Part shown: positions 4,358 to 42,641 of the stretch, one piece after another
How the letters are laid out: each line of letters begins with the position of its first letter
How positions within the stretch are numbered: position 1 is the first letter of the stretch
Assembly: GCA_964587855.1 (NCBI GenBank)
Contig: CAZPLT010000001.1
Location: forward strand, 83,523-147,522
DNA length: 64,000 nt
Direction: 5' to 3'
Source of the DNA: an uncultured Muribaculaceae bacterium
GTDB taxonomy: Bacteria > Pseudomonadota > Alphaproteobacteria > Rs-D84
Position numbers and translations under genes: made by a program
The notes under the pieces: model-generated
Databases searched by the model: none
What the model was told of the DNA's origin: nothing
The model's input: the letters and a program-made list of their open reading frames with translations, nothing else

Positions 4358-5430
4358 AAAAGTACCTTTATTTTTTAACTTTTGTTTTTTTTATCTTAGG
4401 TTCTGCTTATGCGGCGCCGAATGAATTGGCTGCGGTAAAAAAACAAATTACCCAGGTTGAACAGCAAAATAAAAAGATAGAACAACAGGTTAAAACGTCG
4501 GATCGCCAAGTTGAGAAAACAAAAAATCAATTGGTTGGTGCTGCAGAAAGTCTGGATAAAATTGAAAATCAACGCGGTGAAATCCAAGATAAAATTAAAA
4601 GTTTAGATGCACGTCGAGATGTCTTGATGGCATCGATTGTTACGAACCAGGGACGTTTGGCCGAAGCCGCGGCAGGATTGGTAACTATTTCTGAAAATCC
4701 TTCATTTTCTGCATCTGATACCCATGAATATATTTTGACATCGGCTTTGTTAACAGGCGTTTCTGATGGGTTTGATTCTGAAATAAAATCGGCGGGGGAA
4801 AAAATCGCCGAACTGGAAAAAGTTATGAACGCCAGAAAAGAACAACAAAAAAATCTTGATAAAACAGCAAAGAAATATGCCGAAAATAAAGATTATTTGG
4901 ATAAGTTGATGAGAACACGTTCCGCACAAAATGAAAAATTAAAATCCAAGCAATATGAATTACAAAAAAAATTACGTGATTTATCTGTTCGCGCAAAAAG
5001 CTTGTCTGAATTGACAGCTGGATTATCGCGGGCCGAGGTTTCATCCGATGATTCATTCAGTTGGCGTAAAATGCGGGCACCTGTATCTGGGATTATGTTG
5101 CGCAGATTCGGCGAAACATCCCCATTGGGTTTGGTATCTGATGGTTGGCTGATAAAGACGCGCAGTGGTGCGTTGGTGACGGCGCCTGCCGATGGTCGTG
5201 TTGAATTTGCAGATGATTTCCGTAAAAATGGTCGAGTGGTAATACTTTCACATAAAAATTCATATTATTCGGTTTTGACCGGACTTGCAACGACAGATGT
5301 TTTGCTGGGCCAAGATGTTTTGGCGGGCGAGCCAATTGGCCGTATGCCCGAAGATCGCGCTGAAATGTATCTGGAACTGCGCCGCGGAACAAAAGCAGTT
5401 GACCCTGCAAAATTATTCAAAGAACCATAG
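4354..5430 (+). CDS. M23 family peptidase / murein hydrolase activator (EnvC-like) with coiled-coil N-terminus
   Basis: Signal peptide, long coiled-coil region. C-terminal LytM/M23 domain (RRFGETSPLG...PADGRVEF...). Confidence 0.75.
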   Translation: MKKYLYFLTFVFFILGSAYAAPNELAAVKKQITQVEQQNKKIEQQVKTSDRQVEKTKNQLVGAAESLDKIENQRGEIQDKIKSLDARRDVLMASIVTNQGRLAEAAAGLVTISENPSFSASDTHEYILTSALLTGVSDGFDSEIKSAGEKIAELEKVMNARKEQQKNLDKTAKKYAENKDYLDKLMRTRSAQNEKLKSKQYELQKKLRDLSVRAKSLSELTAGLSRAEVSSDDSFSWRKMRAPVSGIMLRRFGETSPLGLVSDGWLIKTRSGALVTAPADGRVEFADDFRKNGRVVILSHKNSYYSVLTGLATTDVLLGQDVLAGEPIGRMPEDRAEMYLELRRGTKAVDPAKLFKEP

Positions 5431-5463
5431 TTTTTTTTGTAAAATTAGACAAATATTTAATAC

Positions 5464-5491
5464 TTGACAAATATACAAATCATACTATACT
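5464..5491 (+). promoter_or_regulatory. sigma70-like promoter (TTGACA-16-TATACT) immediately upstream of ATG at 5498
   Basis: -35 TTGACA 5464-5469, -10 TATACT 5486-5491. ATG only ~6 nt after the -10, implying a leaderless transcript. Confidence 0.45.
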
Positions 5492-5497
5492 TATTGT

Positions 5498-6418
5498 ATG
5501 AAAATTAGGAAATTACAAAATCATGGTCGCGAGACTTACGCTGTTTATTACGGCGATGGGTTTGTTTTAAAACGTCCTTTGCCAAATTTTGGAGAAGAAG
5601 CACAAGAAAAATGGCTTGCTAAACAACATAAGACTAAGCAGGTTATTGATGAAATTTATGCCGTAGGGAACCCGACTTACAATATTCCAAGAATGGTTTA
5701 TATTAATGATGATGAGTATCAAGTTCTCGAAGAACGTGCCTTGGGTGGGCCTTTAACGAAAGAATTATATAGAACCTTGACCCGTCGTCAACAGTTGGAA
5801 ATTGTAAACGGGTTGTCAAGTTTTTTGGTGGATATGAATGAATTAAAGCCAACAAAAGAAATTGTAAATCATAAGATAACATCAGAAATAAAATTTTCTA
5901 GATTTGAAAACTTTGTAGAAAATAAAATGTCAGATTGGTTTGCGGTAAATGATGTTAAATATATGATAAAAGTTAAAAATCAAATAAGTCAATTTGAATA
6001 TAAAACTATGGAAGCATGGTCTCATGGGGATTTAAATGCGGGGAATGTGCTTTATAATAAAGATACCAGCAAATTATCTTTTATAGATTTTGCAGAAGCA
6101 AGTTATAAATTTATTTATCGGGATATTTTTGCTTCTTTACAAATAGAACTTGATATTTGTAAACCGGTTTATGAAATTTATAAAAAGTTTCATGTTCAAA
6201 GAAAATATAAAATGCCCGGTATAGGTTCTTCTGAATTACAGGATATAATGAAAAATCGAATAACTATAGTATGGCTAAAGCGTTTTATTAAGGCTTCGGA
6301 TGACTTACGGCAAAATACAGAAACAGAAAAAGGGGAAAAAAATAACACAGAGAAAGTAAAATTCATGTGTGAAACTATACATAATTTAAAAAACTTAGAT
6401 AGAAAGTTTTCTAGATAA
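5498..6418 (+). CDS. Kinase-fold protein of APH/choline-kinase/Kdo-kinase type
   Basis: Catalytic-loop-like HGDLNAGNVLY, metal-binding IDFAEAS (D-F/W-x motif), N-terminal FVLKRP lysine. Own promoter and terminator. Confidence 0.45.
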   Translation: MKIRKLQNHGRETYAVYYGDGFVLKRPLPNFGEEAQEKWLAKQHKTKQVIDEIYAVGNPTYNIPRMVYINDDEYQVLEERALGGPLTKELYRTLTRRQQLEIVNGLSSFLVDMNELKPTKEIVNHKITSEIKFSRFENFVENKMSDWFAVNDVKYMIKVKNQISQFEYKTMEAWSHGDLNAGNVLYNKDTSKLSFIDFAEASYKFIYRDIFASLQIELDICKPVYEIYKKFHVQRKYKMPGIGSSELQDIMKNRITIVWLKRFIKASDDLRQNTETEKGEKNNTEKVKFMCETIHNLKNLDRKFSR

Positions 6419-6450
6419 ATCCCCTCTTGCGTGGGGGATTTTTTTTTGCT
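6419..6450 (+). terminator. Rho-independent terminator
   Basis: atcccc-tcttgcg-tgggggat followed by T9. Confidence 0.7.
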
Positions 6451-6479
6451 AAATTTTGTTAATTGTAAAGGGGGTTTTT

Positions 6480-7790
6480 ATGAAAAAGATTTTAATTTCG
6501 ATTTTATTATCATTTGTGGTTGTTTTTAGTGCGACAGCGGCAGAAAAGAAAGCACCTGTAAAACATCTGACAGATGCCCAAATTTATGAACAATTGAAAA
6601 AATTTGCATTGGTATTTGAAACAGCACGTGAAAATTTCGTAGAAGAAGTTGATGAAAAGAAAATGCTGGAAGCAGCTATGAACGGAATGTTGATGGAATT
6701 GGATCCTCATTCTTCGTATTTGAATGCTGATGACTTGAAAGATTTTGACGATAAATCTTCGGGCAGTTTTGGTGGCGTCGGTATTCAAATTACATCGGAC
6801 AAGGGCGCAATCAAGGTTATTTCCCCAATTGATGACACCCCAGCTTATCGTGCTGGGATAAAGGCTGGCGATTATATAACTCATATTGATGGGCAACAAG
6901 TTTTTGATATGTCTTTGAATCAAGCCGTTAAAAAAATGAAGGGGCGTCCAGGGACCAAGATAAAATTAACAATTGTTCCCGAAGAACGTGGCGAGCCAAA
7001 AACAATTACCCTTACTCGCGATATAATCAAAGTTAAATCAATAAAATTTGCTGCCAAGGGGGATGATAAAAAAATTGGATATATTCGTGTTTCTGATTTT
7101 GGCGCAACTACAGCCAAAGAATTAAAAGAAGCCATAGAAAAATTAGAAAAACAGAAAGTTATAGGCTATGTGTTGGACGTTCGTAATAATCCAGGTGGAT
7201 ATTTGATTGCGGCCATTGAAGTTTCTGATGCTTTCTTGGATAGTGGTGAAATAGTTTCAACCCGTGGTCGTGGCAAAGAAGATATTGATCGCAGTATGGC
7301 AAAGCCTGGTGATTTAACACATGGAAAACCAGTTGTTGTTTTGATAAACCATGGATCTGCATCAGCATCAGAAATTGTTGCAGGCGCGCTTCAGGATAAT
7401 AAACGTGGATTGGTTATGGGCAGTCAATCATTTGGTAAGGGTAGCGTTCAACAACAAAAACCTTTTGGCGATGGCACAGCAATTCACTTGACCATTGCGC
7501 GGTATTACACCCCATCTGGTAAATCAATCCAGGGCGAAGGAATTACTCCGGACGTAGAAGTATTGCAATCCAAAGTAGAAGTTTTGGAAAAGAAAAACGA
7601 TATCTTTTCCGAGGCCAGCTTTAAAAATGCTTTGAAAAATGAAAAAGCTAAAAAGCAAGATGCAAAAGATGATGAAGAAGATGATGATTCTAAATTAACA
7701 GATGCTGAAAAAGATGCCCGCGATTATCAATTGCAACGTGCAATGGATATGGTTCGTGCAATGTCTAAATTAAAGCCTGTGAAAAAATAA
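6480..7790 (+). CDS. ctpA: Carboxy-terminal processing protease (S41, PDZ-containing)
   Basis: Signal peptide, PDZ region, S41 core (GGYL..., SASASEI). Start at MKKILIS. Confidence 0.85.
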   Translation: MKKILISILLSFVVVFSATAAEKKAPVKHLTDAQIYEQLKKFALVFETARENFVEEVDEKKMLEAAMNGMLMELDPHSSYLNADDLKDFDDKSSGSFGGVGIQITSDKGAIKVISPIDDTPAYRAGIKAGDYITHIDGQQVFDMSLNQAVKKMKGRPGTKIKLTIVPEERGEPKTITLTRDIIKVKSIKFAAKGDDKKIGYIRVSDFGATTAKELKEAIEKLEKQKVIGYVLDVRNNPGGYLIAAIEVSDAFLDSGEIVSTRGRGKEDIDRSMAKPGDLTHGKPVVVLINHGSASASEIVAGALQDNKRGLVMGSQSFGKGSVQQQKPFGDGTAIHLTIARYYTPSGKSIQGEGITPDVEVLQSKVEVLEKKNDIFSEASFKNALKNEKAKKQDAKDDEEDDDSKLTDAEKDARDYQLQRAMDMVRAMSKLKPVKK

Positions 7791-31334: not shown

Positions 31335-31691
31335 ATGTTTGCGTTTACAAATTCTAAAGAAAAAAATAGTCCTACAATTATTGGAGCAGGTGCCAAAATA
31401 ATTGGTGATATCAAGGGTGGTAATATCGTTCAAATTCATGGTCAAATAAATGGCAAGGTTATGGCAGATACGTTAGTTGTTGGACGCGGGGGCAAGATTA
31501 TAGGTAAAGTTGTTGCAAAGAATCTGTTTCTACATGGTATGATTGATGGTCCAGCAACGGTTGATATTGCAAATATCTTTTCTGATGCTGAAATGACGGG
31601 AGTTTTGTCTTATAAAAAGCTAAATATTACAAATAACAACAGATTGGATTGCAAATTAGTTTGCAGAAAGGGTGGAGAGTGCAATGTTTAA
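31335..31691 (+). CDS. Bactofilin (DUF583 beta-helical cytoskeletal protein)
   Basis: Repetitive IxGxxxG beta-helix pattern (IIGAGAKIIGDIKGGNIVQIHGQINGKV...). 118 aa. 1 bp after the M23 gene. Confidence 0.7.
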   Translation: MFAFTNSKEKNSPTIIGAGAKIIGDIKGGNIVQIHGQINGKVMADTLVVGRGGKIIGKVVAKNLFLHGMIDGPATVDIANIFSDAEMTGVLSYKKLNITNNNRLDCKLVCRKGGECNV

Positions 31692-32124
31692 TGGCAATAT
31701 TTATATTTCTTCGGATCATCGTGGGGTTGGGTTGAAACTGTATTTGACCGAAATGTTATCAGCATCTGGTTATAAAGTAGTAAATTTGGGTACAGATAAT
31801 CCAAAAGATGATGTAGATTTTCCAGAAATTACTAAACGTGTAACAGATGCTATACTAACAGATAGTTCGGCACGCGGTATAGTTATATGTGGGACAGGTG
31901 CGGGGGTTCAAATTGCAGCAAACAGATATAAACATATACGCGCAACCAGATGCGAACGTCCAGAGCAGGCTCGTGCAGATAGATTTCATGATGATATAAA
32001 TGTACTTGCGCTGGCAGCTGATGAAACAGATCCTGAAATGGCAATGGCATGTGTTTCCGAGTTTCTAGAAACCCAATTCGACGCGATAGAACGCAGAGTC
32101 CGCAGAATCAAAGAAATTTCTTAA
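31684..32124 (+). CDS. rpiB: Ribose-5-phosphate isomerase B
   Basis: RpiB/LacAB fold. ISSDHRG and CGTGAGVQIAANR motifs. Confidence 0.85.
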   Translation: MFNGNIYISSDHRGVGLKLYLTEMLSASGYKVVNLGTDNPKDDVDFPEITKRVTDAILTDSSARGIVICGTGAGVQIAANRYKHIRATRCERPEQARADRFHDDINVLALAADETDPEMAMACVSEFLETQFDAIERRVRRIKEIS

Positions 32125-32135
32125 AAAGATAAAAA

Positions 32136-32864
32136 ATGTCGTTAAAAAAAATAGCAATAAATTTATTATGCGGATTTATCCCATTTGAAAGAAACAGAAG
32201 GGTTTTGCGAGGTTTTTTATCCGGCAAAGCAAGAAATAATCAAATAATTTTTGTAAAAAATGGAAAACAATATAAAAAAAGATTTTGGAATTTTATCCCT
32301 GGGCTTTCAATAAAAATTGCTGGGAATAACAATAAAGTTATTTTAGTTTTGCCAATAAAAGCAATAAATTCTCAAATAGATATAGATGGGGATAATTGCC
32401 ATGTTGAAATAGGAAAGACGGATAAATTCTATAATGTAAAAATTCATTTATGGGATGGGGACAATCAAATCCTTACAATTGGGGACAATACAACAATACG
32501 TGGCGCAGAATTTAGAATGGCGAACAGTAATACAATGATTAAAATCGGAATTAATTGTATGTTTTCTTGGGGGATTTCAATTTTTGCTACGGACAGCCAT
32601 ACGATTTTTGATAAAGACACAAAAGAAATTTTAAATAAACAAAAAGAACCTTTGATAATAGGGGATAATTGTTGGATAGCAAATAATGTAATTTTTACTA
32701 AAAATGCCCAAATCCCAGACAATACTATTATAGGGATGTTTTCGTTAGTTTCTAAGAAATTCACAGAACCGTTTACGATTATTGCGGGAAACCCAGCAAA
32801 AATTGTAAAACAAAATGTATCGTGGACGGAAAAAGAAATATATTTGGTTGAAAAAAATGTGTAA
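32136..32864 (+). CDS. Hexapeptide-repeat (left-handed beta-helix) acetyltransferase
   Basis: C-terminal IGDNCWIANNVIFTKNAQIPDNTIIGMFSLV (LbH repeats). Confidence 0.7.
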   Translation: MSLKKIAINLLCGFIPFERNRRVLRGFLSGKARNNQIIFVKNGKQYKKRFWNFIPGLSIKIAGNNNKVILVLPIKAINSQIDIDGDNCHVEIGKTDKFYNVKIHLWDGDNQILTIGDNTTIRGAEFRMANSNTMIKIGINCMFSWGISIFATDSHTIFDKDTKEILNKQKEPLIIGDNCWIANNVIFTKNAQIPDNTIIGMFSLVSKKFTEPFTIIAGNPAKIVKQNVSWTEKEIYLVEKNV

Positions 32865-32884
32865 AATAAAAAAAAGGAGAAACA

Positions 32885-33235
32885 ATGGCATATTTTATGA
32901 TTCTGGCAATAGCTGTATTATGTATAGTTTTATTGATTTTTTTGATTCAAATCCCGGTATTAATTGCTCGTGGTCGCAGTTTGTCGGCATCTGATATAAC
33001 AACAATCACTATTTTATCGTGGTTTGGGCTGATTTTCGGGGTTACTTGGTTTGTTGCGCTGGTTTTATCACTGGTATGGCGACCTGGGCAGTGGACAGGC
33101 AGATGTGAAGCATGCGGTGGCACCAAACCGACGGTTGATGCAGCAGAGCAATTAGAAAAATTGGACAAGTTAAAAAAGCGTGGGGTAATTACACAAAAAG
33201 AATTTGATGCGCAAAAGAAAAAGATTTTGGGATAA
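32885..33235 (+). CDS. Membrane protein with Imm-like 2-TM N-terminus and C-terminal SHOCT domain
   Basis: Two TM helices with a W/GW-rich motif. C-terminal LEKLDKLKKRGVITQKEFDAQKKKIL is a SHOCT motif. Confidence 0.5.
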   Translation: MAYFMILAIAVLCIVLLIFLIQIPVLIARGRSLSASDITTITILSWFGLIFGVTWFVALVLSLVWRPGQWTGRCEACGGTKPTVDAAEQLEKLDKLKKRGVITQKEFDAQKKKILG

Positions 33236-33291
33236 AAATAATTGTAAAATTATATTAAAAAACAAAGAGTTCCGTTAAAAAGGGAACAACG

Positions 33292-33320
33292 AAATATATG
33301 GGGAAATCCCATATATTTTT
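33292..33320 (+). terminator. AT-rich hairpin terminator (11-bp stem aaatatatggg/cccatatattt plus T-run)
   Basis: Perfect 11-bp inverted repeat with 5-nt loop followed by ttttt. Confidence 0.5.
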
Positions 33321-33361
33321 GATACTTAATAAGCGCATAATGTATATTATGTATAGTTTAA

Positions 33362-33411
33362 GATGTATAGAATTATGGGGCTATTCAATTAGCCCCATAA
33401 TTCTATACATC
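33362..33411. repeat. 22-bp perfect inverted repeat (hairpin, 6-nt loop)
   Basis: gatgtatagaattatggggcta-ttcaat-tagccccataattctatacatc. Flanked by further near-palindromic AT-rich sequence. Confidence 0.9.
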
Positions 33412-33566
33412 GCAAGATTTGTAAACAATACATAATATATCATATCAAACGAAAACAAAATTAAATTACGCTCATTCTTAAAAAACTGGCGGCTGTTTCT
33501 CTCTCTTTTTTATTTTCAGATTTTTCTTTTTATTTCTAACTCGTTTTATGCTAAAATGCCGGTATT

Positions 33567-34289
33567 ATGCGTATAGATGTTTATCTTACTCAACAAAAAT
33601 TATACCCGACCAGGGCAAAAGCGGCCGCTGCGATCGATATGGGCCTGGTTTTTATAAATTGTAAATTATGCAAAAAATCCAGTCAAATCATAAAAGAAAA
33701 TGATAGTGTTAAAGTAAACTCTCTACCTTTTGTGTCGGGACGCGGTAGTTTAAAACTGGCGCACGCTTTGGACCATTTTAAAGTCGATCCGACCGGCCTT
33801 ACCTGTCTTGATATTGGTGCCAGTACCGGTGGTTTTACCGAAATTTTATTAAATCGTGGTGCTGCTCAAATTTTTGCCGTGGATGTCGGAACCAATCAAC
33901 TGATTCCAGAGCTTCGCACAAATAAACGAGTAACATCATTTGAAAATACTGATATTCGTACTCTGCCCGTTATTAAACCTGTGGATTTAGCGGTAATCGA
34001 CGTGTCTTTTATATCACTAAATGATATTGCGCAATCGGTCGTTAATTGGAATCCAAAGCAAATTATCGCATTGATAAAGCCCCAGTTCGAGGTTAAAAGC
34101 AGCGTTTCTGCTAAATTTCACGGTATTATAAAAGATGAAAAATATCATGCAGAATCAATCAAAAACACCGTAATAGCATTTGCTAAATTTGGTTATATTG
34201 CATCAAATGCTATAAAATCCCCCATCAGGGGCGGCAGTGGGAATATAGAGTATTTAATTATGTTTAATATTGGTGAAAAAAGCCGGTAA
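33567..34289 (+). CDS. tlyA: TlyA-family rRNA 2'-O-methyltransferase (S4 + FtsJ-like domains)
   Basis: S4-like N-terminus (MRIDVYLTQQKL). SAM motif LDIGASTGGFTE. ~240 aa. Confidence 0.85.
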   Translation: MRIDVYLTQQKLYPTRAKAAAAIDMGLVFINCKLCKKSSQIIKENDSVKVNSLPFVSGRGSLKLAHALDHFKVDPTGLTCLDIGASTGGFTEILLNRGAAQIFAVDVGTNQLIPELRTNKRVTSFENTDIRTLPVIKPVDLAVIDVSFISLNDIAQSVVNWNPKQIIALIKPQFEVKSSVSAKFHGIIKDEKYHAESIKNTVIAFAKFGYIASNAIKSPIRGGSGNIEYLIMFNIGEKSR

Positions 34290-34291
34290 TT

Positions 34292-34705
34292 TTAGCCGCC
34301 CATACTTTCAAGTAATGCCATAATATGTTTACGCATATCATTATTGGGTAACTTCCAGTATAAATTTATCAATTTCAAGGTTTCATTACTGGACATTGGA
34401 TCTGTATGGTCTGGTTCTGCTACGCGAAGCTTTTTATCACCACTTTCAGTATTTGCATGTTCTGTGGTTAATCCGGAAAAAAAGAATCCGATTGGTGTTT
34501 CCAACGCGGTCGCAATTTGGAAAAGACGTGAAACAGATATTCTATTTCCTGAAGTTTCATATTTTTGAATTTGTTGAAATGTTACGCCACATCTTTGAGC
34601 CAAATCTTTTTGTGTGATTGCCATTATATTACGGCGCAGACGAATGCGTTGTCCGATATAGACATCGACCATGTTGGTCGCAACTGATTTTTTATTCATT
34701 GCCAT
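34292..34705 (-). CDS. XRE-family helix-turn-helix transcriptional regulator
   Basis: ITQKDLAQRCGVTFQQIQKYETSGNRISVSRLFQIATAL is an HTH_3 signature. Confidence 0.65.
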   Translation of the reverse strand: MAMNKKSVATNMVDVYIGQRIRLRRNIMAITQKDLAQRCGVTFQQIQKYETSGNRISVSRLFQIATALETPIGFFFSGLTTEHANTESGDKKLRVAEPDHTDPMSSNETLKLINLYWKLPNNDMRKHIMALLESMGG

Positions 34706-34749
34706 AATCTATATTTATAGGAAATTTTTCAAATTTAAGCAAGGGAAAA

Positions 34750-34832
34750 AGAAAAAGGGGCGACCCGATATGAAGCGCTGGGCTGCTGGTTTCCCCCTGA
34801 CCCGCTGGCGCCCTGCTTCGTCCGCCCTGATG
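34750..34832 (-). ncRNA. ffs: Signal recognition particle RNA (4.5S / small bacterial SRP RNA)
   Basis: Minus-strand GGGCGGACGAAGCAGGGCGCCAGCGGGUCAGGGGGAAACCAGCAGCCCAGCGCUUCAUAUCGGGUCGCCC carries the domain IV consensus GGUCAGG...GNRA...CAGCAGCC. Terminal helix GGGCG/CGCCC. Followed by a U-rich terminator. GC-rich island in an AT-rich spacer. Confidence 0.75.
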
Positions 34833-34858
34833 AAATTTATAATGTTTTTATGCAAAAG

Positions 34859-35521
34859 TCAAATAAGATTGCCATCTTGTAATATTTTTTTATCATCCAT
34901 CATCATTCCAGAATAAATTTTCGTTCCTGTTTTTACACCCAGTCTTGCACTGATTAAAACCCGTTCTGCTGTATTCTTTTTACCAGAAAACAAAGGAATA
35001 ATTTCAATTTCCCCCGCTTTACCGTTATGTAATGCCGCGATAATTTCACTGATTACTGTGCTGTCTGCGATCGCTAAAAAGTATCCACGTGGACGAACAC
35101 GTTTCAAACAAGCGCGTGTCCATTCGGTTAAATTTACATTATGATGTGCGCCGTGTCCCGCTGCACTGCCCTTGAAATAAGGTGGATTAGTAATAACTGC
35201 ATCAAATGTTTTTGATGTATTCCAATTTAGAATATCTGTATTTAATAATTCTATTTTTCTTTTATTTAATTCAGCATTTTTTTCACACTCGTCCAATCTT
35301 TGTTCTGATATATCAATACCTGTAATTTCCAGATTTGGATTATGTTCTAATAAACAAAGAGAAACACCACCAGTGCCAATGCCTACATCTAGAACAGTTT
35401 TAATTTTAGCCTTGGCTGCCCATGCCGCCAACCAAACTGCATCGCTGGTTATATTATAGTCCCCGCGATAAAATTTGACTCGGTTTCCCAGTGCGGTAAA
35501 AAAAACTTGTTTTTGGTTCAT
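34859..35521 (-). CDS. Class I SAM-dependent N6-adenine-type methyltransferase (NPPY motif; TrmN6/YfiC-like)
   Basis: VLDVGIGTGGVSL (motif I) and ITNPPYF (motif IV). Confidence 0.65.
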   Translation of the reverse strand: MNQKQVFFTALGNRVKFYRGDYNITSDAVWLAAWAAKAKIKTVLDVGIGTGGVSLCLLEHNPNLEITGIDISEQRLDECEKNAELNKRKIELLNTDILNWNTSKTFDAVITNPPYFKGSAAGHGAHHNVNLTEWTRACLKRVRPRGYFLAIADSTVISEIIAALHNGKAGEIEIIPLFSGKKNTAERVLISARLGVKTGTKIYSGMMMDDKKILQDGNLI

Positions 35522-35571
35522 ACACTCTTATAATATACATTCGTATAAAAAACGCAAATAAAAGGTTATTT

Positions 35572-36600
35572 ATGTTTGACCCAACATTAGTAGTTCAATC
35601 GGCAATAAGCAGTTTTAATAATATCGCATTGCACAGTCCAGACTTTTTTTGGAGCACCCTGCTCTGTCTACCTATTTTCGCAGTATTCTGGATTTTTGCT
35701 CCAGAAATCACCACAAGATTTTTGCCAGATTCAAAAAAGCGCTTAAAAACAATTGCAACGTGGAGTATTGCTTTTATTGCGATATGGTTATTAAGTCACG
35801 AAAGTTTTAACGCTTTGCGTGATGGAATTTCTTTGGGAATTTCTGCATTAACTGCTGCATGCGTTTTTGTTTTATCTTTGTTTGCTGGCTGGCATGTTCC
35901 GTCGTTTAGCAATCTTGTAAATATTAAAGAAAAATGGCGCAAAAAAGCAGATATAGTTGCACCAATAATTGCTGCGGCATTGATTGGATTATGTGCGTGG
36001 GGGACATGGCAGACAATTTTGGTTCAATTTATTGCGACTTTGTTCGGTTTTTATGCTGGGCGTTTAATGGTTTATCGTAATCGTCACAAAATGGGTTCAG
36101 AAAGTTTAGTAATATTATTGATGGGGTTATTGCTTTTTGGTTTAGTTATGCAGCCCGAGTTTTTCCGATTCGGTCAATTGGGTCATTTGACCATAATTCA
36201 TACTTTGTCTTTAATATTTACTTTGGTAACAATAATTGTCAGCATTATGATGCGTTCGGTCAGACCAACTGGCTGGTTAAAAAAATCACATTATAAAAAA
36301 TTAATGTGGTTAATGCGTGCCGGTATTATATTAGCATTGGTATTATTTTTGATGACAGAAAATGCTCTGGCTTTTGCAGTATTGGGTATGGGTATTTTTG
36401 TTCAATCATTCATAGTTATACGTCATCGTGCTCCATCGGATAGCAATTTATTAAAAAATTGGTCCGAAGATTTATGGATTTTATCTTTGGGATTATTTGG
36501 TTTATTAACAACAATGCCCACAATAATTTGTGCGGTAATAATTTTGGTTCGTACAAGGGTCAAATTTAGCGCCAAGGCAGCAATTAAAAGCGTGTTATAA
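35572..36600 (+). CDS. Polytopic integral membrane protein, unknown
   Basis: ~9-10 predicted TM helices. No recognisable motif. Confidence 0.5.
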   Translation: MFDPTLVVQSAISSFNNIALHSPDFFWSTLLCLPIFAVFWIFAPEITTRFLPDSKKRLKTIATWSIAFIAIWLLSHESFNALRDGISLGISALTAACVFVLSLFAGWHVPSFSNLVNIKEKWRKKADIVAPIIAAALIGLCAWGTWQTILVQFIATLFGFYAGRLMVYRNRHKMGSESLVILLMGLLLFGLVMQPEFFRFGQLGHLTIIHTLSLIFTLVTIIVSIMMRSVRPTGWLKKSHYKKLMWLMRAGIILALVLFLMTENALAFAVLGMGIFVQSFIVIRHRAPSDSNLLKNWSEDLWILSLGLFGLLTTMPTIICAVIILVRTRVKFSAKAAIKSVL

Positions 36601-36654
36601 TTCGTTATATTAATTGAATACATATTTGACGTGGCGGAGTTTATAATTCTGCCT

Positions 36655-37446
36655 ATGATTCACGAAACAGCAATAGTTCATCCAAAAGCAAAACTGGGTG
36701 CCGATGTAAAAATCGGACCATTTTGTATAATTGGCGAAAATGTAGTTCTGGGCGATCGCGTGGAACTGATATCAAATGTAATTATCGATGGTGATACCGA
36801 AATCGGTGACGATACAATCGTGTATCCTTTTGCCGTTTTGGGTGTAATGAGCCAGGATCTTAAATTCCAAGACGCCGAAGCAATGACAGGTCTGCGTATC
36901 GGCAAAAGAAATCGTATTCGCGAATATGTAACAATACATTCGGGCACCCCTGCAAGTGATGGGACAGAAATCGGCGATGATTGCCAAATTATGGTGAATG
37001 CTCATATTGGGCATGATTGCAAATTGGGTAACGGAATTGTTTTATCTAATTTGGTTCAAATTGCTGGACATGTTGAAATAGAAGATTTTGTTATTGTGTC
37101 TGCGTGCAGCGCAATACATCAATTTGTTCGTATCGGCCGTAATGCTTTTATTGGTGGAATGACCGGTATAGGTACAGACGTGGTTCCTTATTCTATATTC
37201 GAGGGACGCCCAGGTATTTACAGAACAATAAATAAAGTTGGCTTAATGCGTCATGGATTTACAACCGAAGATATTCATGCAATACATGCTGTTTATGCAG
37301 CCTTTTTTGCCAAGGACGAAGGTGAAACTACTTCTTCGGACAGATTAAAGAATGTCCGCAAAGAAGTTAAAAATAGTAAATATGCGATGGACGCAATAGA
37401 CTTTATTGAAAATCGTTCTACGCGTGGCGTTTCGGCAAAACAATGA
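36655..37446 (+). CDS. lpxA: UDP-N-acetylglucosamine O-acyltransferase
   Basis: MIHETAIVHPKAKLGADVKIGPFCIIGENV hexapeptide repeats. Followed by lpxB. Confidence 0.9.
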   Translation: MIHETAIVHPKAKLGADVKIGPFCIIGENVVLGDRVELISNVIIDGDTEIGDDTIVYPFAVLGVMSQDLKFQDAEAMTGLRIGKRNRIREYVTIHSGTPASDGTEIGDDCQIMVNAHIGHDCKLGNGIVLSNLVQIAGHVEIEDFVIVSACSAIHQFVRIGRNAFIGGMTGIGTDVVPYSIFEGRPGIYRTINKVGLMRHGFTTEDIHAIHAVYAAFFAKDEGETTSSDRLKNVRKEVKNSKYAMDAIDFIENRSTRGVSAKQ

Positions 37447-38549
37447 AATCCCTAAAAATTTTTATAATTGCTGGTGAAGTTTCTGGCGACGTTCTGGGCG
37501 AAAAAATAATGCGCGCCCTGCCACGTGATACCAAATTTATGGGTATAGGCGGACAGCATATGCAAGCGGCGGGGCTGCGCCCTATTTTTCCAATTTCTGA
37601 TTTAGCAGTAATGGGTGTGTTTGAAGTTTTAGCAAATGTTAAAACATTAACCCGCAGAATAAATGAAACCGCAGATGCGATAATCAAATTCGGGCCGGAC
37701 ATAGTTCTGACCATAGATAGTCCCAGTTTTGCAAAACGCGTTATTAAAAAAGTTCGTGGTCGTATAAAGACTAAATTTTATCATGTTGTTGCTCCCCAGG
37801 TTTGGGCATGGGGTGAAAAGCGCGCGAAAAAATTCGCCAAAATTTTTGATAAGCTTTACGCATTTTTTGATTTTGAAAAACCTTACTTTGAAAAATATGG
37901 TTTGCCAGTTGTCGCGGTCGGACATCCAATTGCAGACGGATTGAAACCGGTGGCAAAGAGCAAAAAGAAAAAAGATAAAAACATTGCATTGATTCCAGGC
38001 AGCCGTATGTCCGAAGTAAAAAAGTTGCTGCCATTAATGCGCACCGCGGCGGAAAAAATGTGCCACCAGAAACCTGATGTTTGGTATAATTTTTATATTC
38101 CAGTGGTTGAAACCACTTTTGAATATATTAAAAAAGAAACCGCGGATTGGTGCACCAAACCAGAATTAGTTCCAGCATCCCAACGTTATGAATTATACAA
38201 AAAAACCGATATTGCGATTGCCGCCAGTGGCACAATTTCAGCCGAGCTGGCAATAATGCATATCCCCGCAATTGTTGTTTATAAAATGAACCCTTTGACC
38301 GAAATGTTGGCACACATATTATTGAAAATTAAATGGGCGTCATTAGTAAACATTTTGATGAATAAAACAATTTTTCCAGAATTATTGGGACGAAATGCAA
38401 CAGCGGAAAATATAATCCGCGAAATTCATAAACTGGAAAATCCAGCGGTGCGTGAAAAAATGATTGCTGATTTAAGCAAAGCAGACAAGATGTGGCGTCG
38501 CGCCCGCCCCGCTGCCGAACTCATCGCTAAAGATATTGTTGGAAAATAA
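37443..38549 (+). CDS. lpxB: Lipid-A-disaccharide synthase
   Basis: KIFIIAGEVSGDVLG N-terminus, GT19 family length. 4-bp overlap with lpxA. Confidence 0.9.
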   Translation: MKSLKIFIIAGEVSGDVLGEKIMRALPRDTKFMGIGGQHMQAAGLRPIFPISDLAVMGVFEVLANVKTLTRRINETADAIIKFGPDIVLTIDSPSFAKRVIKKVRGRIKTKFYHVVAPQVWAWGEKRAKKFAKIFDKLYAFFDFEKPYFEKYGLPVVAVGHPIADGLKPVAKSKKKKDKNIALIPGSRMSEVKKLLPLMRTAAEKMCHQKPDVWYNFYIPVVETTFEYIKKETADWCTKPELVPASQRYELYKKTDIAIAASGTISAELAIMHIPAIVVYKMNPLTEMLAHILLKIKWASLVNILMNKTIFPELLGRNATAENIIREIHKLENPAVREKMIADLSKADKMWRRARPAAELIAKDIVGK

Positions 38550-38552
38550 ATA

Positions 38553-38586
38553 AAAAAATCGCGCCGACGCGCGATTTTTTTATTTA
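38553..38586 (+). terminator. Rho-independent terminator after lpxB
   Basis: atcgcgc-cgac-gcgcgat plus T-run. Same stem sequence as the tsf terminator. Confidence 0.75.
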
Positions 38587-38594
38587 TATATTTA

Positions 38595-40529
38595 TTATTT
38601 TAATGGGGGGTAGCATTCGCCGTCCGCTATCGCGCAGCATGCATAGCCATTCATACTTTCTACCCATCTAAAACTTTCCCCTGAGCAACAACCATTTTCA
38701 TCTGGGGCGTCGCCACTGGTGCATAATTGCGAAGAAACTGTATTATGTTCTTCATTGTAATTTGATGGACCATGTACTGGATATTCTGGTTTCAGTGGTA
38801 ATGTTATTGTTGATTTTTCATCTGGAACGGATATAACCTCTGGCTCTGGTTCTTGTACGGGTTCAGGCTCGGCAATTGGTGCGGGCATTGGTTCTGGTTC
38901 CGCCACAGGTTCTGGCATTGCGACTGGCGCGGGCATTGGTTCTGGTTCAATGACTGGCGCTGGTTGTGGTTCCGGTTCTGTGATAACTGGGACTGGCTGT
39001 GGTTGTGGTTTTACAATCGGTGCTGGCTGAGGCATGGGTTGTGGTGCCGGTTCCGCAACTGGTTCTGGCTGGGGCATTATAAATGCAGATTCATTTGTTT
39101 GTGGTGCTGGTGCGGTTTCTGTCGGAACATTTTCAGAAACGACACTGGGTTGCGCCAGATTTGGTGTTCCAGATTTATCCATTCTGGATTGATAAATAGA
39201 CAAAGTTAAAATGCAAAGTCCGATTAAAATAACCAACATTATATAATAAACAAAGCTGGGCTTTTTTGCCCCAACAGGTGGGTGCAAAACTGTAACATCA
39301 GGATTTGTTATTGGGGATGCGGGTCTTTCCATTTCAACCGGCGGCACCACTGGCGGAACGGTTGGTTCTGATAACTTTGCAATAGGCTGTTGTTGTGGTA
39401 CAGCAATAGTTTGCTGAGGCATATTCACAGGTATAGTTGTTGGTTCAGTCGTATTGATAACCGGTTCAACAACAGTTGGTTCAATCGGCTGTGGTGCAGT
39501 GAAAGTTATCGAATCGGGGGTTGTTGTGTTGTCTTCCGAATTTGTTTGCTTGATATTAAATTCTGTTGGATTAAATGAAGGTGTTTCAAATCCAATCGGT
39601 TGGAAAGCAATTTTATCATCTATTATTTCAGGATCTTTGTTAAACAAAGGTTTTGGTTCATCTGCCATTCTTGGCTCCTGTGATTTTTCTATATTTATTA
39701 AATCTTTGACGTTATTTGTCGCCTTTAATACATTGCGTGCTGCGGTTGAATCATTTCTTGCATCTTCCAGTCTTTTTTTTGCGCGACGCAATCTGGCCTT
39801 TGCCCGTTTTTCTTTTTCGTTTACTTTATCCATTTGGGATTGGACTTTTAATATTTTTGCTGCGGATTCTTTTGTTGGTTTTTTCCCAACTTCACTGCGT
39901 ATTTTGTTCAACTTTGTTTTCAAAGATTTGATATTAGAATGTAATTTAATCAGGGATTCTTCGGTTTTTTTAATGGTTTCGGTTGAAATCTCAATTTCAC
40001 GCATAGCAGCATTTAATCTGGCCTGGGCCAATTCTTGACCGACAGTTATTCTAAACTTATTTAAATTATCCAATGCATTATCTATGGTTCCACCTGTTTT
40101 ATAATCAGCAATAAGTTGCCCATAAACAGGCAATCCTGTATAATTTATATCCAGCTTTTGATATTTATTATTTTTCTTTGGACGGACGTCTTCCAAATCC
40201 ATTTTATAATCATTGCTTAAAATATCGTCCCATTTGCGCCCTTCCCGATCCGCAATTATCAATAATATATTCGGAGTGTTTTCGGTACGTGTTTCATCCA
40301 ACACAAATATAAGTTTGTGATCAGCATCATAAAAAGCAGAAAATTTATTTCCAGAGATGTTAAAAGATTCCGTCATAATTTTATCAGTATATTTAGAATT
40401 ATTGAAAGAAAATACAGGCATGTCAGAATCTGGCATGGTTGCGATATGTGTGCTAGAAAAATTTTCTCTCTCGTTATTTGCCATTTTTAAGACTTCTTTG
40501 GTGGTGGCATTTGGTATGCTGCGCGGCAA
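38595..40529 (-). CDS. Bitopic protein with PEPxPAP-type proline repeats and Cys-rich C-terminal domain
   Basis: ~430-aa N-terminal region with coiled coil (KLNKIRSEV...RAKARLRRAKKRLEDAR). Single TM (YYIMLVILIGLCILTLSIY). >15 Pro-rich degenerate repeats. C-terminal 10-Cys domain. Alternative start 40484. Confidence 0.55.
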   Translation of the reverse strand: MPRSIPNATTKEVLKMANNERENFSSTHIATMPDSDMPVFSFNNSKYTDKIMTESFNISGNKFSAFYDADHKLIFVLDETRTENTPNILLIIADREGRKWDDILSNDYKMDLEDVRPKKNNKYQKLDINYTGLPVYGQLIADYKTGGTIDNALDNLNKFRITVGQELAQARLNAAMREIEISTETIKKTEESLIKLHSNIKSLKTKLNKIRSEVGKKPTKESAAKILKVQSQMDKVNEKEKRAKARLRRAKKRLEDARNDSTAARNVLKATNNVKDLINIEKSQEPRMADEPKPLFNKDPEIIDDKIAFQPIGFETPSFNPTEFNIKQTNSEDNTTTPDSITFTAPQPIEPTVVEPVINTTEPTTIPVNMPQQTIAVPQQQPIAKLSEPTVPPVVPPVEMERPASPITNPDVTVLHPPVGAKKPSFVYYIMLVILIGLCILTLSIYQSRMDKSGTPNLAQPSVVSENVPTETAPAPQTNESAFIMPQPEPVAEPAPQPMPQPAPIVKPQPQPVPVITEPEPQPAPVIEPEPMPAPVAMPEPVAEPEPMPAPIAEPEPVQEPEPEVISVPDEKSTITLPLKPEYPVHGPSNYNEEHNTVSSQLCTSGDAPDENGCCSGESFRWVESMNGYACCAIADGECYPPLK

Positions 40530-41008
40530 TGTTCATAACAATATGGTTTGCCGGGAAAAACCTTGGCTCCACAAAAATGGAAATTTTCTGAATCTGGATT
40601 GCCAATTGGCCAACGACATTGGTCTGGTCTTAACATTGCCAATTCAACAGCGTGCTGAATCATATGTTGATGCGCGACCAGGTTTTTTTTGCTGGTTACA
40701 GTAGTTTTGTTTGCTGGGGCCTTTGGGGATGGCGCTGTGACTTTTTTAGTTTTTGCGGTATTAGCCGGAACTTTTTTAACATTATCTTTTTTTGCTGGTT
40801 TAACCTTTATAACAATTTCTTTCTTTGCAGGTGCTTTTTTATTAGCATTAGCAACAGATTTGTTGTTCCAGCCCAGGCGATTCAGTTTGCCTACAACGGC
40901 ATTTTTGGACATGCCGATTTTTTTGCCGATTTCAGAAGTGCTCATGCCCTTTTCTAGCAAGGCTTTCATTTTGTTTAAGGTTGCGGGGGTCCATCCGATA
41001 GATGCCAT
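40487..41008 (-). CDS. gcrA: GcrA cell-cycle regulator
   Basis: N-terminal W-T-x-x-x-x-x-x-L-x-x-L-W-x-x-G-x-S-x-x-x-I-x-x-x-x-G (MASIGWTPATLNKMKALLEKGMSTSEIGKKIG...NAVVGKLNRLGW). C-terminal CRWPIGNP...FHFCGAKVFPGKPYCYEH. Confidence 0.85.
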   Translation of the reverse strand: MASIGWTPATLNKMKALLEKGMSTSEIGKKIGMSKNAVVGKLNRLGWNNKSVANANKKAPAKKEIVIKVKPAKKDNVKKVPANTAKTKKVTAPSPKAPANKTTVTSKKNLVAHQHMIQHAVELAMLRPDQCRWPIGNPDSENFHFCGAKVFPGKPYCYEHCRAAYQMPPPKKS

Positions 41009-41089
41009 GATATTGCTCTCTGTTTATTATTTTCTTTTATTATTTATCAAATTGTAGCATAATTAAAAAAAGAAAAACAAGGGGAAAAA

Positions 41090-41533
41090 ATGTTAGCGAT
41101 TTTTATAATTTTATTACTAGCAGCAGTGTTTTGCGCGGCTATGATGTGCAAAAATGATTGGAAAAACAGAATAATACCAGATGTTTATCTTTTCCCTTTT
41201 ATGTTAATTGGGTTATTAGTGGTCACATTTTTCCCATGGTTCTTTGATTTTGGGGAATCTGTGATTGCCGGCACGATTGGTTATGGGCTGGGAATTATTA
41301 TGGGATTGCTGTTCAAAAAAAAGTCCCCCGAAGCTATTGGAATGGGCGATGTAAAATTGATGGCAGCTGGTGGTATATGGTTGGGCGCCAGCGGTTTGGC
41401 AGTTTCTTTGATAATATCTTGTGTTTTGGGCGGAGTATGGGGAATGCTTAAAAAACAAAAATTTATTCCATTTGCCCCTTTCTTTTTTATCGGCGCAATT
41501 TGTTCTTTAATAATAATGGGAATAATGATATAA
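41090..41533 (+). CDS. A24-family prepilin peptidase, CpaA/TadV-like (short form)
   Basis: Two catalytic-Asp contexts (IPDVY..., GMGDVKL). 5 TM. 147 aa. Confidence 0.55.
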   Translation: MLAIFIILLLAAVFCAAMMCKNDWKNRIIPDVYLFPFMLIGLLVVTFFPWFFDFGESVIAGTIGYGLGIIMGLLFKKKSPEAIGMGDVKLMAAGGIWLGASGLAVSLIISCVLGGVWGMLKKQKFIPFAPFFFIGAICSLIIMGIMI

Positions 41534-41546
41534 TTGACCAGAGAGA

Positions 41547-42641
41547 ATGAAAAAAGTATACGCTTTTTCAATGGCTGTTGCATGCTGGATAATCCCCGCT
41601 GGGATCGCATGCGCTACAGATTTCCCATTGTCCCAATACGGTCAGATTCAAAATGTCCAAAGCTATTCTTCTAACCCTTTTTATAATCCAGACAGCCCTT
41701 ATAATCAGCGCATGCCGACAGCAATTTATGCCCAGGGAACAGAATTAAATGCTGGGGAATGTCGCAATGTTGTTGATGTAATAGTCGGTGGATTATGCGC
41801 ACAACGTAATAATTGCGAAGGATTAAGTTTATCTGATATTCGTCCATCGGTGGTAATCCAATTATCAAATTTGACTGGACATAACTATGTTACGGCTTGT
41901 AATGGTTATATTCAACCATCATTTGAAGATTATATGAAAAATAACAGTGCGGTAAAAGTTACTGGCTTTCCATCGGCTTTTCCAACAGTTAATTCAACAC
42001 AAACAGAAAATTCATCCAGTGAATTGATTTTAAGTAATCCTTATGAATTGAAAAAAGCAGATTGGGAGAACAATAAAACTGCACGTCAAAATGAACTGCG
42101 TGCTTTACAAAGACAAAATGGTTCTGATGATGTAGCGTTGGCAGCAACAAAATTTCCAACAACTTATGCTGATTTATCTTTTACAGAAAGAATGGAAAAT
42201 GACCAGGCTGGATATGAACCATGGAAAGATGCCCAGGCTTATAAACCAATTAAAATAGAAGACGATGAAACAAGATATGAAAGAGAAAACGAACTCGCCC
42301 AACAACAATTAGAATTAGCAAAAAAACAAGATGAATTGTTACAGGTTACAAGTCAATGTACATGGTGTTATAACAATCAAACAAAATGTTATAATGATTT
42401 AGCCAAACAAGTTAATGATTTAAACAAGAGCAGAAAAGATAATGCTTGTTCAGAAAAGGTCTCTGGAACAGACACTTCATATATCGCACAAGATGTAGTC
42501 TCAGATGCTAAGTGCGGCTGGATTCTAAAAGATAATGTCAGAACGGTAACTTTAACCGACGCGGATTGTGGCACACCGTCTAATGGAAATAATACCGGAA
42601 ATGGTTCAAGTGATAATCCTATAGTTATTGATCTAGGGTAA
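41547..42641 (+). CDS. Secreted protein (364 aa), unknown
   Basis: Signal peptide. Cys pairs. Asn/Gln-rich. No domain recognised. Confidence 0.5.
   Translation: MKKVYAFSMAVACWIIPAGIACATDFPLSQYGQIQNVQSYSSNPFYNPDSPYNQRMPTAIYAQGTELNAGECRNVVDVIVGGLCAQRNNCEGLSLSDIRPSVVIQLSNLTGHNYVTACNGYIQPSFEDYMKNNSAVKVTGFPSAFPTVNSTQTENSSSELILSNPYELKKADWENNKTARQNELRALQRQNGSDDVALAATKFPTTYADLSFTERMENDQAGYEPWKDAQAYKPIKIEDDETRYERENELAQQQLELAKKQDELLQVTSQCTWCYNNQTKCYNDLAKQVNDLNKSRKDNACSEKVSGTDTSYIAQDVVSDAKCGWILKDNVRTVTLTDADCGTPSNGNNTGNGSSDNPIVIDLG

Follow-up and report, generated by a model that had tools for sequence, protein, structure and literature searches.

A perfect 22-bp palindrome beside dif in an uncultured alphaproteobacterium, and its link to an inverted copy of the XerD arm

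Introduction

The dif site and its recombinases XerC and XerD form one of the best-studied site-specific recombination systems and are textbook material: at dif, XerC and XerD separate sister chromosomes by dimer resolution. The system also serves medically important phages and genomic islands as their point of entry, and its minimal site of 28 bp is usually regarded as all that is needed. In this study, we analyzed a perfect palindrome with 22-bp arms that is located next to a dif site and upstream of tlyA in a 64,000-nt stretch of DNA from an uncultured alphaproteobacterium (contig CAZPLT010000001.1). This whole 64-kb stretch is called the window; positions are window coordinates, and labels such as L005 denote compared loci or contigs. 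A preliminary description made from the letters of the window had reported the palindrome and offered several interpretations, which are taken up below where the evidence bears on them.

Among the systems that resemble this locus, the XerD-only sites (XDS) are dispersed over the terminus region, and a forked hairpin of the phage attachment site (attP) of CTX-phi was reportedly described by Val et al. in 2005. In Bacillus subtilis and Staphylococcus aureus, XDS have the role of unloading SMC complexes at the terminus, according to Karaboja et al. (2021; summarized in PMC9226527 and PMC12322038). According to PMC9226527, an XDS is composed of a XerD arm, a degenerate centre of 5-6 bp plus the innermost 5 bp from a second, XerD-type arm. 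The attP of CTX-phi-type Xer-exploiting mobile elements (IMEX) contains two inverted dif-like sites about 90 nt apart and forms a forked hairpin in single-stranded DNA (PMC9226527). In Acinetobacter, the dif modules ("D modules") are bounded by inverted pdif sites with their XerD sides facing inward (PMC13141974; PMC6449649).

The dif site and the dif-anchored inverted repeat

The palindrome is almost certainly part of an inverted repeat of the XerD arm that is anchored on dif, and not a free-standing element. The locus consists of the following features:

33330-33357, plus strand: dif, TAAGCGCATAA-TGTATA-TTATGTATAGT, with an 11-6-11 layout
33330-33340, plus strand: XerC-binding arm of dif, TAAGCGCATAA, aligning to the left arm of Escherichia coli dif, GGTGCGCATAA
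33341-33346, plus strand: central region of dif, TGTATA, the same as in E. coli and invariant in 88 related genomes
33347-33357, plus strand: XerD-binding arm of dif, TTATGTATAGT, also contained in the left outer arm (33343-33360) of the large inverted repeat
33362-33383, plus strand: left arm of the palindrome, GATGTATAGAATTATGGGGCTA
33384-33389, no strand: loop and centre of symmetry of the palindrome, TTCAAT
33390-33411, plus strand: right arm of the palindrome, TAGCCCCATAATTCTATACATC
33412-33421, plus strand: 10-nt asymmetric bulge leading from the inner stem to the outer arm, GCAAGATTTG, taken from folds
33422-33439, minus strand: inverted copy of the block formed by 4 bp from the central region of dif, the XerD arm and the GTTT flank, reading TATA-TTATGTATTGT-TTA on the minus strand

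The identification of 33330-33357 as the chromosomal dif is secure. Compared with the dif of E. coli (GGTGCGCATAA-TGTATA-TTATGTTAAAT), 23 of the 28 positions matched, including an exact run of 20 nt, and its layout, two arms of 11 bp whose inner 5 bp are palindromic (CATAA/TTATG) on either side of a 6-bp centre, fits the proteobacterial consensus. In E. coli, dif lies by hipA and yneE, with the XerC arm on its left and the XerD arm on its right; the dif query identified one place per chromosome beside these two genes in 5371 of 5426 complete E. coli genomes. Within the window dif was unique, the next-best match having at least 6 mismatches. The 25-mer GCGCATAATGTATATTATGTATAGT was 100% conserved in L005-L009, where it is located in synteny between a SHOCT-domain gene and tlyA; the identity of TlyA to that of the window was 84% in L005-L007 and 76% in L008 and L009.

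A scan of species-representative genomes with the 20-mer ATAATGTATATTATGTATAG identified 119 contigs with a single match each, every one from the genome of a different species. Most belonged to uncultured Alphaproteobacteria, many of them from gut or rumen (Candidatus Enterousia and relatives), and there was also a Desulfobulbales-type set. The comparative set comprised 88 related alphaproteobacterial genomes sharing dif and about 30 Desulfobulbales-type (deltaproteobacterial-type) genomes with the same 20-mer. A scan of metagenomes for the dif subtype of the window returned only three loci, two of which were already known.

The distribution of FtsK-orienting polar sequences (KOPS) agreed with this assignment, since octamers of this type (GGGNAGGG-like) converge and flip strand exactly at dif. 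In the 88 genomes, the KOPS-type sequence GGGCAGGG was present left of dif 20 times on the top and 0 times on the bottom strand, and right of dif 0 times on the top and 47 times on the bottom strand. The corresponding counts of GGCAGGG were 35 top and 2 bottom on the left, and 1 top and 65 bottom on the right. The window alone displayed the same switch for G[AG][AG]NAGGG, with 9 top and 1 bottom left of 33.3 kb and 0 top and 8 bottom right of it (Fisher p ~2e-4).

The arms of the palindrome are complementary at all 22 positions around the 6-nt loop, as the preliminary description had stated, and they form the longest perfect hairpin of the window. The longest stem in 40 dinucleotide-preserving shuffles averaged 10.4 bp and reached at most 13 bp. 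The intergenic region including the palindrome was base-for-base the same in three independent Logan assemblies of SRA runs (L001-L003), and the palindrome and its flanks were identical to the window in a fourth assembly (L010). A re-check for an assembly artefact, which the same description had suggested, thus gave none, since the palindrome is identical in four independent assemblies.

The palindrome starts 4 bp (TTAA) from dif. On its other side, the right of the two near-palindromes that had been noted around it, cataatatatcat, is the reverse complement of the XerD arm of dif together with TATA and the GTTT flank, with one mismatch. The segments 33343-33360 and 33422-33439 are complementary over 18 nt at 94%, and 33425-33435 (ACAATACATAA) matches the reverse complement of the dif XerD arm at 10 of 11 positions. 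This inverted copy has no XerC arm, the 10 nt at the XerC-arm position matching at 3 of 10, and it is therefore a candidate for an extra XerD-only half-site. Since 33422-33439 is an inverted copy of the XerD arm of dif, the palindrome forms the apex of a dif-anchored inverted repeat of about 100 nt. The repeat (33337-33436, about 100 bp, with 47-nt arms) is located on the XerD side of dif, and as single-stranded DNA it folds at -33.2 kcal/mol with z = -10.8 (about -11 on either strand). Read from left to right, the locus thus consists of dif (XerC arm, TGTATA and XerD arm), the four bases TTAA, the palindrome (two 22-bp stem arms around the loop), the bulge of 10 nt, and the inverted XerD arm with TATA. 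Bulges similar to that of the window were present in L008 (CGCAAATAGC) and L031 (GCATGGCTGC).

The preliminary description had correctly treated the nested repeats as belonging together, and the flanking near-palindromes cataatgtatattatg and cataatatatcat that it listed are real and mutually complementary. It had recognised neither cataatgtatattatg as the core of dif nor cataatatatcat as the inverted XerD arm. Of the options that it offered, a replication or partition element came closest, while the operator, small RNA (sRNA) or RNase III and transposable-element options fared poorly. The last of these, the fused terminal repeats of a miniature inverted-repeat transposable element (MITE) or another dispersed repeat such as a repetitive extragenic palindrome (REP), is disfavoured: no second copy of the palindrome 22-mer was found within the 64-kb window at up to 3 mismatches, and relatives carry the element at the orthologous position with diverged sequence.

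Inside the SHOCT-domain gene, in its 5' portion and about 430 bp to the left of dif, a 15-nt direct-orientation copy of the XerD arm and its flank, TATTATGTATAGTTT, was observed at 32913-32927. Its estimated chance expectation is about 1e-3 per window, and it was present in the window strain and L011 and not in L005 or L008.

Conservation of the extra arm in related genomes

When a distance of up to 95 nt was searched, an inverted [GTTT + XerD arm + TATA] was detected in 46 of the 88 alphaproteobacterial genomes, at 15-76 nt on the right of dif, and in 0 of the approximately 30 Desulfobulbales-type genomes. Left of dif, there was only one comparable and weak inverted-arm match, all other extra arms being located on the XerD side. 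The extra arms were essentially always inverted, with two weak copies in direct orientation. The conserved block of the proximal inverted arm is AAA-ATACATAATAT, and its conservation stops sharply after TAT(A) and never reaches TG or the XerC arm. A copy that went on into the XerC arm would make up a whole inverted dif, presumably a harmful arrangement.

Presence of the arm was accompanied by strong folding. Where it was present, the 110 nt starting from the central TATA had a mean of -18.8 kcal/mol and z = -5.75, with 95% of the sequences below z = -2. The respective means were -3.3 kcal/mol and z = -0.58 in the 43 genomes without the arm, and -6.7 kcal/mol and z = -0.24 in the 30 Desulfobulbales-type genomes. 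A sequence-based alignment of four relatives with RNAalifold misaligned the inner stems and gave weak covariation; for this reason, the folds of the individual sequences were relied on.

The stems themselves are variable. Those of the window, L008 and L031 differ in sequence and are each strongly self-complementary (z = -12.5, -7.8 and -6.7, respectively). At the position of the palindrome, L008 carries ATGCATAGTTTATGGGGT-gtaaaaaat-ACCCCATAAACACTATGCAT followed by AAACAATACATAATATA, and L031 has an unrelated stem of 15 bp or more, AATAAACAGATATGG / CCATATCTGTTTATT, between GATGT...ACATC and the same inverted arm. The stem of L005 is degenerate, and L011 and L147 contain a different hairpin and no inverted arm. 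Many spacers share a GC-rich tip, TGC-TGNC-GCA. Between L016 and L057, both arms were shortened symmetrically by one base (GTTC/GAAC to GTC/GAC). The left arm of the palindrome is partly kept in L008, L005, L011 and L147, and one further feature lies within it:

Within 33362-33383, plus strand: degenerate direct second copy of the core of the XerD arm, ATGTATAG, followed by TTATGGGG

A degenerate core copy of the ATGTATAG type was also discernible in L008, L011 and L147.

This variation bears on the proposal that the dyad is a protein-binding operator, for instance of the XRE-family regulator next to it, or a promoter element that controls tlyA. In favour of this, a dimer could bind to a perfect dyad of 22 bp, and the XRE gene is kept in synteny. 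Close relatives retain part of the left arm as ATG-ATAG-TTATGGGG, and the inverted arm contains sequences resembling a -10 box. However, the XRE proteins are 91-93% identical, with an almost unchanged N-terminal half (HTH_3), while the dyad is degenerate in L005, different in L008 and unrelated in L031. The structure stays next to dif even where genes intervene before tlyA (in L008 a gene with an ACT domain, in L011 and L147 an insertion with an abhydrolase). Moreover, tlyA was located within 4 kb of dif in only 33 of 89 genomes, and the same architecture was found elsewhere without tlyA as the right neighbour. A protein operator or a promoter element of tlyA is thus very unlikely.

The unit [spacer hairpin + inverted arm + TATA] often occurs in tandem, with 2 to 7 or more units. 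The array of L072 consists of 7.3 copies of 45 bp and runs off the end of the contig, that of L129 of 4.6 copies of 66-68 bp with a 135-bp higher-order unit, and 3-5 units were found in L033, L082, L099, L105, L106 and others. Array units with unrelated spacers keep the core ACATAATATA(A) (L077, L111, L076 and L082). In addition, a lone inverted AAACTATACATAAT was present 350-700 nt right of dif in 15 species, against an estimated chance of about 0.25 genomes. In this distal arm, 14 positions were at least 90% conserved and the flanks were at background. The retained cores, the lone arms and the scarcity of direct copies were taken as evidence of selection on the XerD arm itself.

The presence and absence of the inverted arm are interleaved on the TlyA tree, and units were therefore gained and lost often. 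Such turnover, with the arm missing in half of the species, is what would be expected if the units were a neutral by-product. In that case, template switching or fold-back synthesis at a blocked and nicked dif would generate copies, which would undergo hairpin-templated correction and then decay, without having any function. Near-perfect stems of unrelated sequence are as expected of young duplications, the higher-order periodicity of the arrays is typical of unequal crossover or slippage, and a GT-rich, apparently degenerate sequence occupies the same place in genomes without the arm. Several observations conflict with this explanation. The outer boundary of the duplication is constant in all species, after TATA and never reaching the XerC arm, and both orientation and side are strictly constant. 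The lone distal arms are kept amid diverged flanks, and the core of the arm is kept in array units with unrelated spacers. We therefore regard a purely neutral origin as unlikely.

Some further observations concern the region right of dif. In 51 of the 88 genomes (e.g., L033, L043 and L121), but not in the window, a conserved non-coding motif, AAAAATGGCGGATTTCTGCGG(G/T)TTT, was present at about +350 to +800 nt on the right of dif. It is preceded by a bottom-strand KOPS-like sequence, GCCCTATTCTG, occurs on the top strand in 48 genomes and on the bottom strand in 3, and has no match in Rfam. Several of these spacers right of dif also contain iteron-like GTCGCTGAAAATCGATT motifs. The distal lone inverted XerD arm of L031 lies at about +491 nt on the right of dif, and directly after it comes TAGTTCGAATCCAACTGCCCGAGCCA, a sequence like that of a tRNA gene at its 3' end (T-loop and acceptor stem), which may be a tRNA fragment or the remnant of an attachment site.

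An inversion switch between dif and the distal arm was considered and rejected. The conserved motif had the same orientation in 48 genomes and was reversed in 3, and the loop TTCAAT was in one orientation in all five copies seen.

Hairpins, transcription and neighbouring genes

The palindrome sits between two same-strand genes, the SHOCT-domain gene and tlyA (33567-34289, with FtsJ and S4 domains), which lies downstream of it. A second hairpin ends the SHOCT-domain gene:

33292-33323, plus strand: 11-bp AT-rich terminator-like hairpin, AAATATATGGG-gaaat-CCCATATATTT followed by TT, with an 11/11 inverted repeat at 33292-33318

This is the AT-rich hairpin terminator that had been reported to precede the palindrome, and it is real. 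It lies immediately left of dif, and L005 and L008 have a hairpin at the equivalent position. A simple terminator scan did not list it because its T-run overlaps the stem.

The position of the palindrome between same-strand genes would be compatible with an RNA element, such as an sRNA, an RNase III site, a structure in the 5' untranslated region of tlyA or a terminator of an unusual type. Folding of the intergenic region as RNA gave -83 kcal/mol and z = -8. However, the stem is followed by no U-tract on either strand (no T-run after 33411 on the plus strand and none before 33362 on the minus strand), in line with the earlier view that it is not a simple terminator. The palindrome was not in the terminator scan, and the upstream gene already has a separate terminator-like hairpin at its end (33292-33323). 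Anchored on the arm of dif, the repeat is symmetric on both strands and follows dif and not any gene. A search of the window with Rfam 15 gave only tRNAs above threshold, the best local match being a plant microRNA model with 33.6 bits against a threshold of 96.2; for the window and eight related loci, nothing was found except spurious microRNA models 60 or more bits below their thresholds. An RNA element of any of these kinds is thus highly improbable. Taken together, the palindrome is best read as neither an operator, a terminator, an sRNA nor a MITE.

Two other perfect hairpins were observed in the window. One has a 19-bp stem and a 4-nt loop (38546-38587) and is located between lpxB and a convergent gene of 644 aa; the other has a 15-bp stem (1850-1883) and lies just 3' of tsf. 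Both are probably bidirectional or ordinary terminators. In the window strain, L010 and L011, rpiB and the SHOCT gene flank a gene encoding a hexapeptide-repeat transferase (window 32136-32864). L005, L008 and L147 lack it there, and it is thus a lineage-specific insertion beside the dif region.

Prophages and a lineage mosaic at dif

Prophages of Microviridae (4.4-5.1 kb, encoding a Phage_F capsid and Rep) were identified in two of the compared loci, at the border between the XerC arm and the central region of dif:

L008, 4352-9520: Microviridae prophage
L012, about 3090-7500, minus orientation: Microviridae prophage

Both insertions duplicated GCG(C/T)ATAATGT, which places the crossover at the border of XerC arm and central region. 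These junctions are the signature of XerC-side integration by a Xer-exploiting element. The attL ends of both prophages contain inverted copies of the XerC arm around small hairpins, like the forked-hairpin attP of CTX-phi. The end in L012 reads GGCGTATAATGT-gatacgt-GATTATGTT-loop-AACATAATC-ccg-CATTATGCGCC, and its inner stem, GATTATGTT/AACATAATC, also resembles the XerD arm. In L012, the open reading frame (ORF) of Rep runs across attR.

These prophages raise the question whether the hairpin and the inverted XerD arm are a scar or miniature hitch-hiker of IMEX, left by integration of single-stranded DNA phages, whose hairpin attP sites mimic dif in the manner of the Microviridae at this dif, with arrays representing successive events. 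The CTX-phage-like attL ends in L008 and L012 are in favour of such an origin. CTX-type integration predicts an arrangement of dif, loop and inverted dif-like site at one junction, which resembles the present one, and both the copy number and the presence of the units vary among species. However, both prophages are located on the XerC side and all extra arms on the XerD side. The predicted inverted XerC arm next to an inverted XerD arm was not found right of any dif, and integration through a XerD-side hairpin predicts alternating direct XerD arms, of which there are almost none. Across species, the distal lone arm is an orthologous element with perfect conservation, unlike a decaying scar. 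In a collection of viral contigs, no contig contained a XerD-arm palindrome flanked by dif-type sequence; the bare palindrome pattern gave 12 matches, all of them unrelated AT-rich palindromes in large phage contigs, and both the dif 20-mer and an inverted-XerC-arm hairpin gave 0 matches. An IMEX scar is therefore rather unlikely as the source of the extra arms.

Another observation at dif concerns L011 (1-11867), which was compared with the window (31684-42202) and L147. It is a mosaic, and its breakpoint coincides exactly with dif. The part to the left of dif shares 99.9-100% identity with the window strain; the part to the right shares 88.7% with the window and 94.9% with another lineage, that of L147. 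A chimera from assembly at k=31 seems unlikely because the junction k-mers carry bases specific to each side, and L011 may represent a natural exchange between lineages at dif. In one sister lineage (L011, 2116-2538; L147, 1156-1758), an insertion of about 0.9 kb with an Abhydrolase_2-like ORF separates dif from tlyA. The tlyA of this lineage was called as split or truncated ORFs, the S4 domain being on a piece of its own, and a frameshift or decay may be the cause.

GC skew around dif

The switch in skew and gene orientation expected at the terminus was not found at dif in the 88 genomes or in the window. In the alphaproteobacterial genomes, the top-strand GC skew at third codon positions (GC3 skew) was positive on both sides of dif for either gene strand (left +0.27/+0.26, right +0.28/+0.17), and 65-69% of the genes were on the plus strand on both sides. 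About 3-8 kb on each side of dif were covered in loci L012-L130, and 8-30 kb overall. Across dif in the window, the estimated skew component linked to replication (r) fell from about +0.19 to about +0.06 without inversion. The Desulfobulbales-type genomes with the same dif 20-mer had a normal skew switch. Since KOPS switch at dif and the skew does not, KOPS convergence is uncoupled from the skew-inferred terminus, at least over 8-30 kb. It seems that dif is displaced from the skew-defined terminus or that replication is unusual in this clade.

An origin of replication next to dif was rejected, as the window has no cluster of DnaA boxes and a search for origin-type genes gave none. Just right of dif, DnaA boxes were weakly enriched in the 88 genomes (0.70 vs about 0.3 per kb).

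Possible origin and function of the extra arms

Our favoured reading, which in our judgement could go either way, is that the extra arms may be accessory, XerC-independent XerD-binding half-sites of dif that act as DNA. New sites would arise by inverted duplication of the XerD flank of dif; the arms have a constant, inverted orientation and lie next to dif, and their spacers are palindromic, which suggests this origin. Because sites would arise by inverted duplication, a young copy such as that of the window is expected to be a near-perfect palindrome. The 22-bp stem of the window could be such a young copy, or could be kept symmetric by correction between its arms, and the stem of L005 would be a decaying copy. 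In general, intra-palindrome correction would keep the arms alike, older spacers would decay and tandem duplication would make the arrays grow.

On the lagging-strand template, the palindrome might be extruded into a hairpin; alternatively, it might form a cruciform with its branch point inside the central region of dif. The latter is predicted for the short uninterrupted versions (e.g., L086 and L111), where the branch point would fall inside this region. The four arms of such a cruciform would be the XerC arm, the XerD arm, unrelated DNA and a XerD arm, which would mimic the Holliday-junction intermediate of Xer recombination. The function might be comparable to that of the XerD-only sites of Bacillus, which unload SMC at the terminus; alternatively, the extra arms might tune the activity of XerD and FtsK at dif.

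A number of points weigh against accessory XerD half-sites. Binding of XerD to the extra arm is deduced from its sequence, and in the window the arm carries one mismatch (CAATAC for CTATAC). The second half-site of the Bacillus type is not conserved: in the window, GATAT matches CATAA at 3 of 5 positions, and the 44 proximal and 15 distal sites display no conservation beyond TATA(A). The claim is thus limited to sites that may work like XDS and does not extend to membership among them, because this second half-site is not conserved. The conservation of the proximal arm could also be passive, by gene conversion with dif's own arm, and a palindromic spacer is not needed if binding of XerD alone mattered. 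In the window, an asymmetric bulge of 1 nt versus 10 nt separates the inner 22-bp stem from the outer arms, and migration of a cruciform branch into dif would be hindered by it. Finally, the inverted arm is absent in about half of the species, presence and absence being intermixed on the TlyA tree, and the feature cannot be essential because so many species lack it.

A wider proposal, which is speculative and unlikely to hold in full, would make the XerD side of dif a self-building platform. Its hairpin or cruciform mimics of Holliday junctions and its arrays of inverted half-sites would then constitute an undescribed Xer-linked mechanism, with XerD-dependent unloading of SMC, control of FtsK in Proteobacteria and XerD-driven production and amplification of DNA units as candidates. 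In a clade where dif and KOPS are uncoupled from the skew terminus, dif would also serve as a breakpoint of exchange between lineages.

Irrespective of mechanism, a family of uncultured Alphaproteobacteria, many of them from gut and rumen, adds hairpin-linked, inverted and sometimes arrayed candidate XerD half-sites to the XerD side of dif. If XerD binds the extra arms, XerC-independent XerD sites would extend beyond Firmicutes, and the arms would provide a sequence handle on the coordination of SMC, FtsK and Xer at the alphaproteobacterial terminus. Further leads are the single-stranded DNA Microviridae with a CTX-phi-like hairpin attP, the position of dif off the GC-skew switch in 88 genomes, and the contig whose halves, about 12% apart, are joined at dif. 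For annotation, long perfect palindromes beside AT-rich dyads centred on TGTATA should be checked against dif.

Comparison with known systems

The dif site itself is a known element, and the added hairpin and inverted XerD arm are apparently an undescribed variant within the literature searched. In that literature, including a large survey of dif sites and a review of Xer, no hairpin-linked inverted XerD arms or arrays beside a chromosomal dif were found. With canonical dif, the site shares the 11-6-11 layout, the identical centre, 23 of 28 bases, the single copy, the convergence of KOPS and the integration of Xer-exploiting phages. It differs in the flanking hairpin and inverted XerD arm, which do not occur in the dif descriptions of the literature searched, and in that the GC3 skew and gene orientation of the clade do not switch at dif.

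Like XDS, the extra sites have a bona fide XerD arm and no XerC arm, and binding of XerD to them would putatively be independent of recombination. In contrast to XDS, their second half is not conserved, and they abut dif, are always inverted, are often joined to it by a hairpin, are sometimes in tandem and belong to another phylum.

The attP of CTX-phi likewise consists of a dif-like site and an inverted partner across a hairpin spacer of similar size, and folding makes the XerD arm duplex in both. However, the present arrangement is chromosomal, vertically inherited and located on the host side of the prophage junction; its first site is the host dif and its partner is without a XerC arm. The D modules of Acinetobacter resemble it in having a segment between inverted Xer sites with the XerD arms facing the segment, and several units in succession. 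Those modules are carried on plasmids and contain genes between complete XerC and XerD sites, while the segment described here is a gene-less hairpin spacer of 64 nt that joins the chromosomal dif to a distal XerD half-site.

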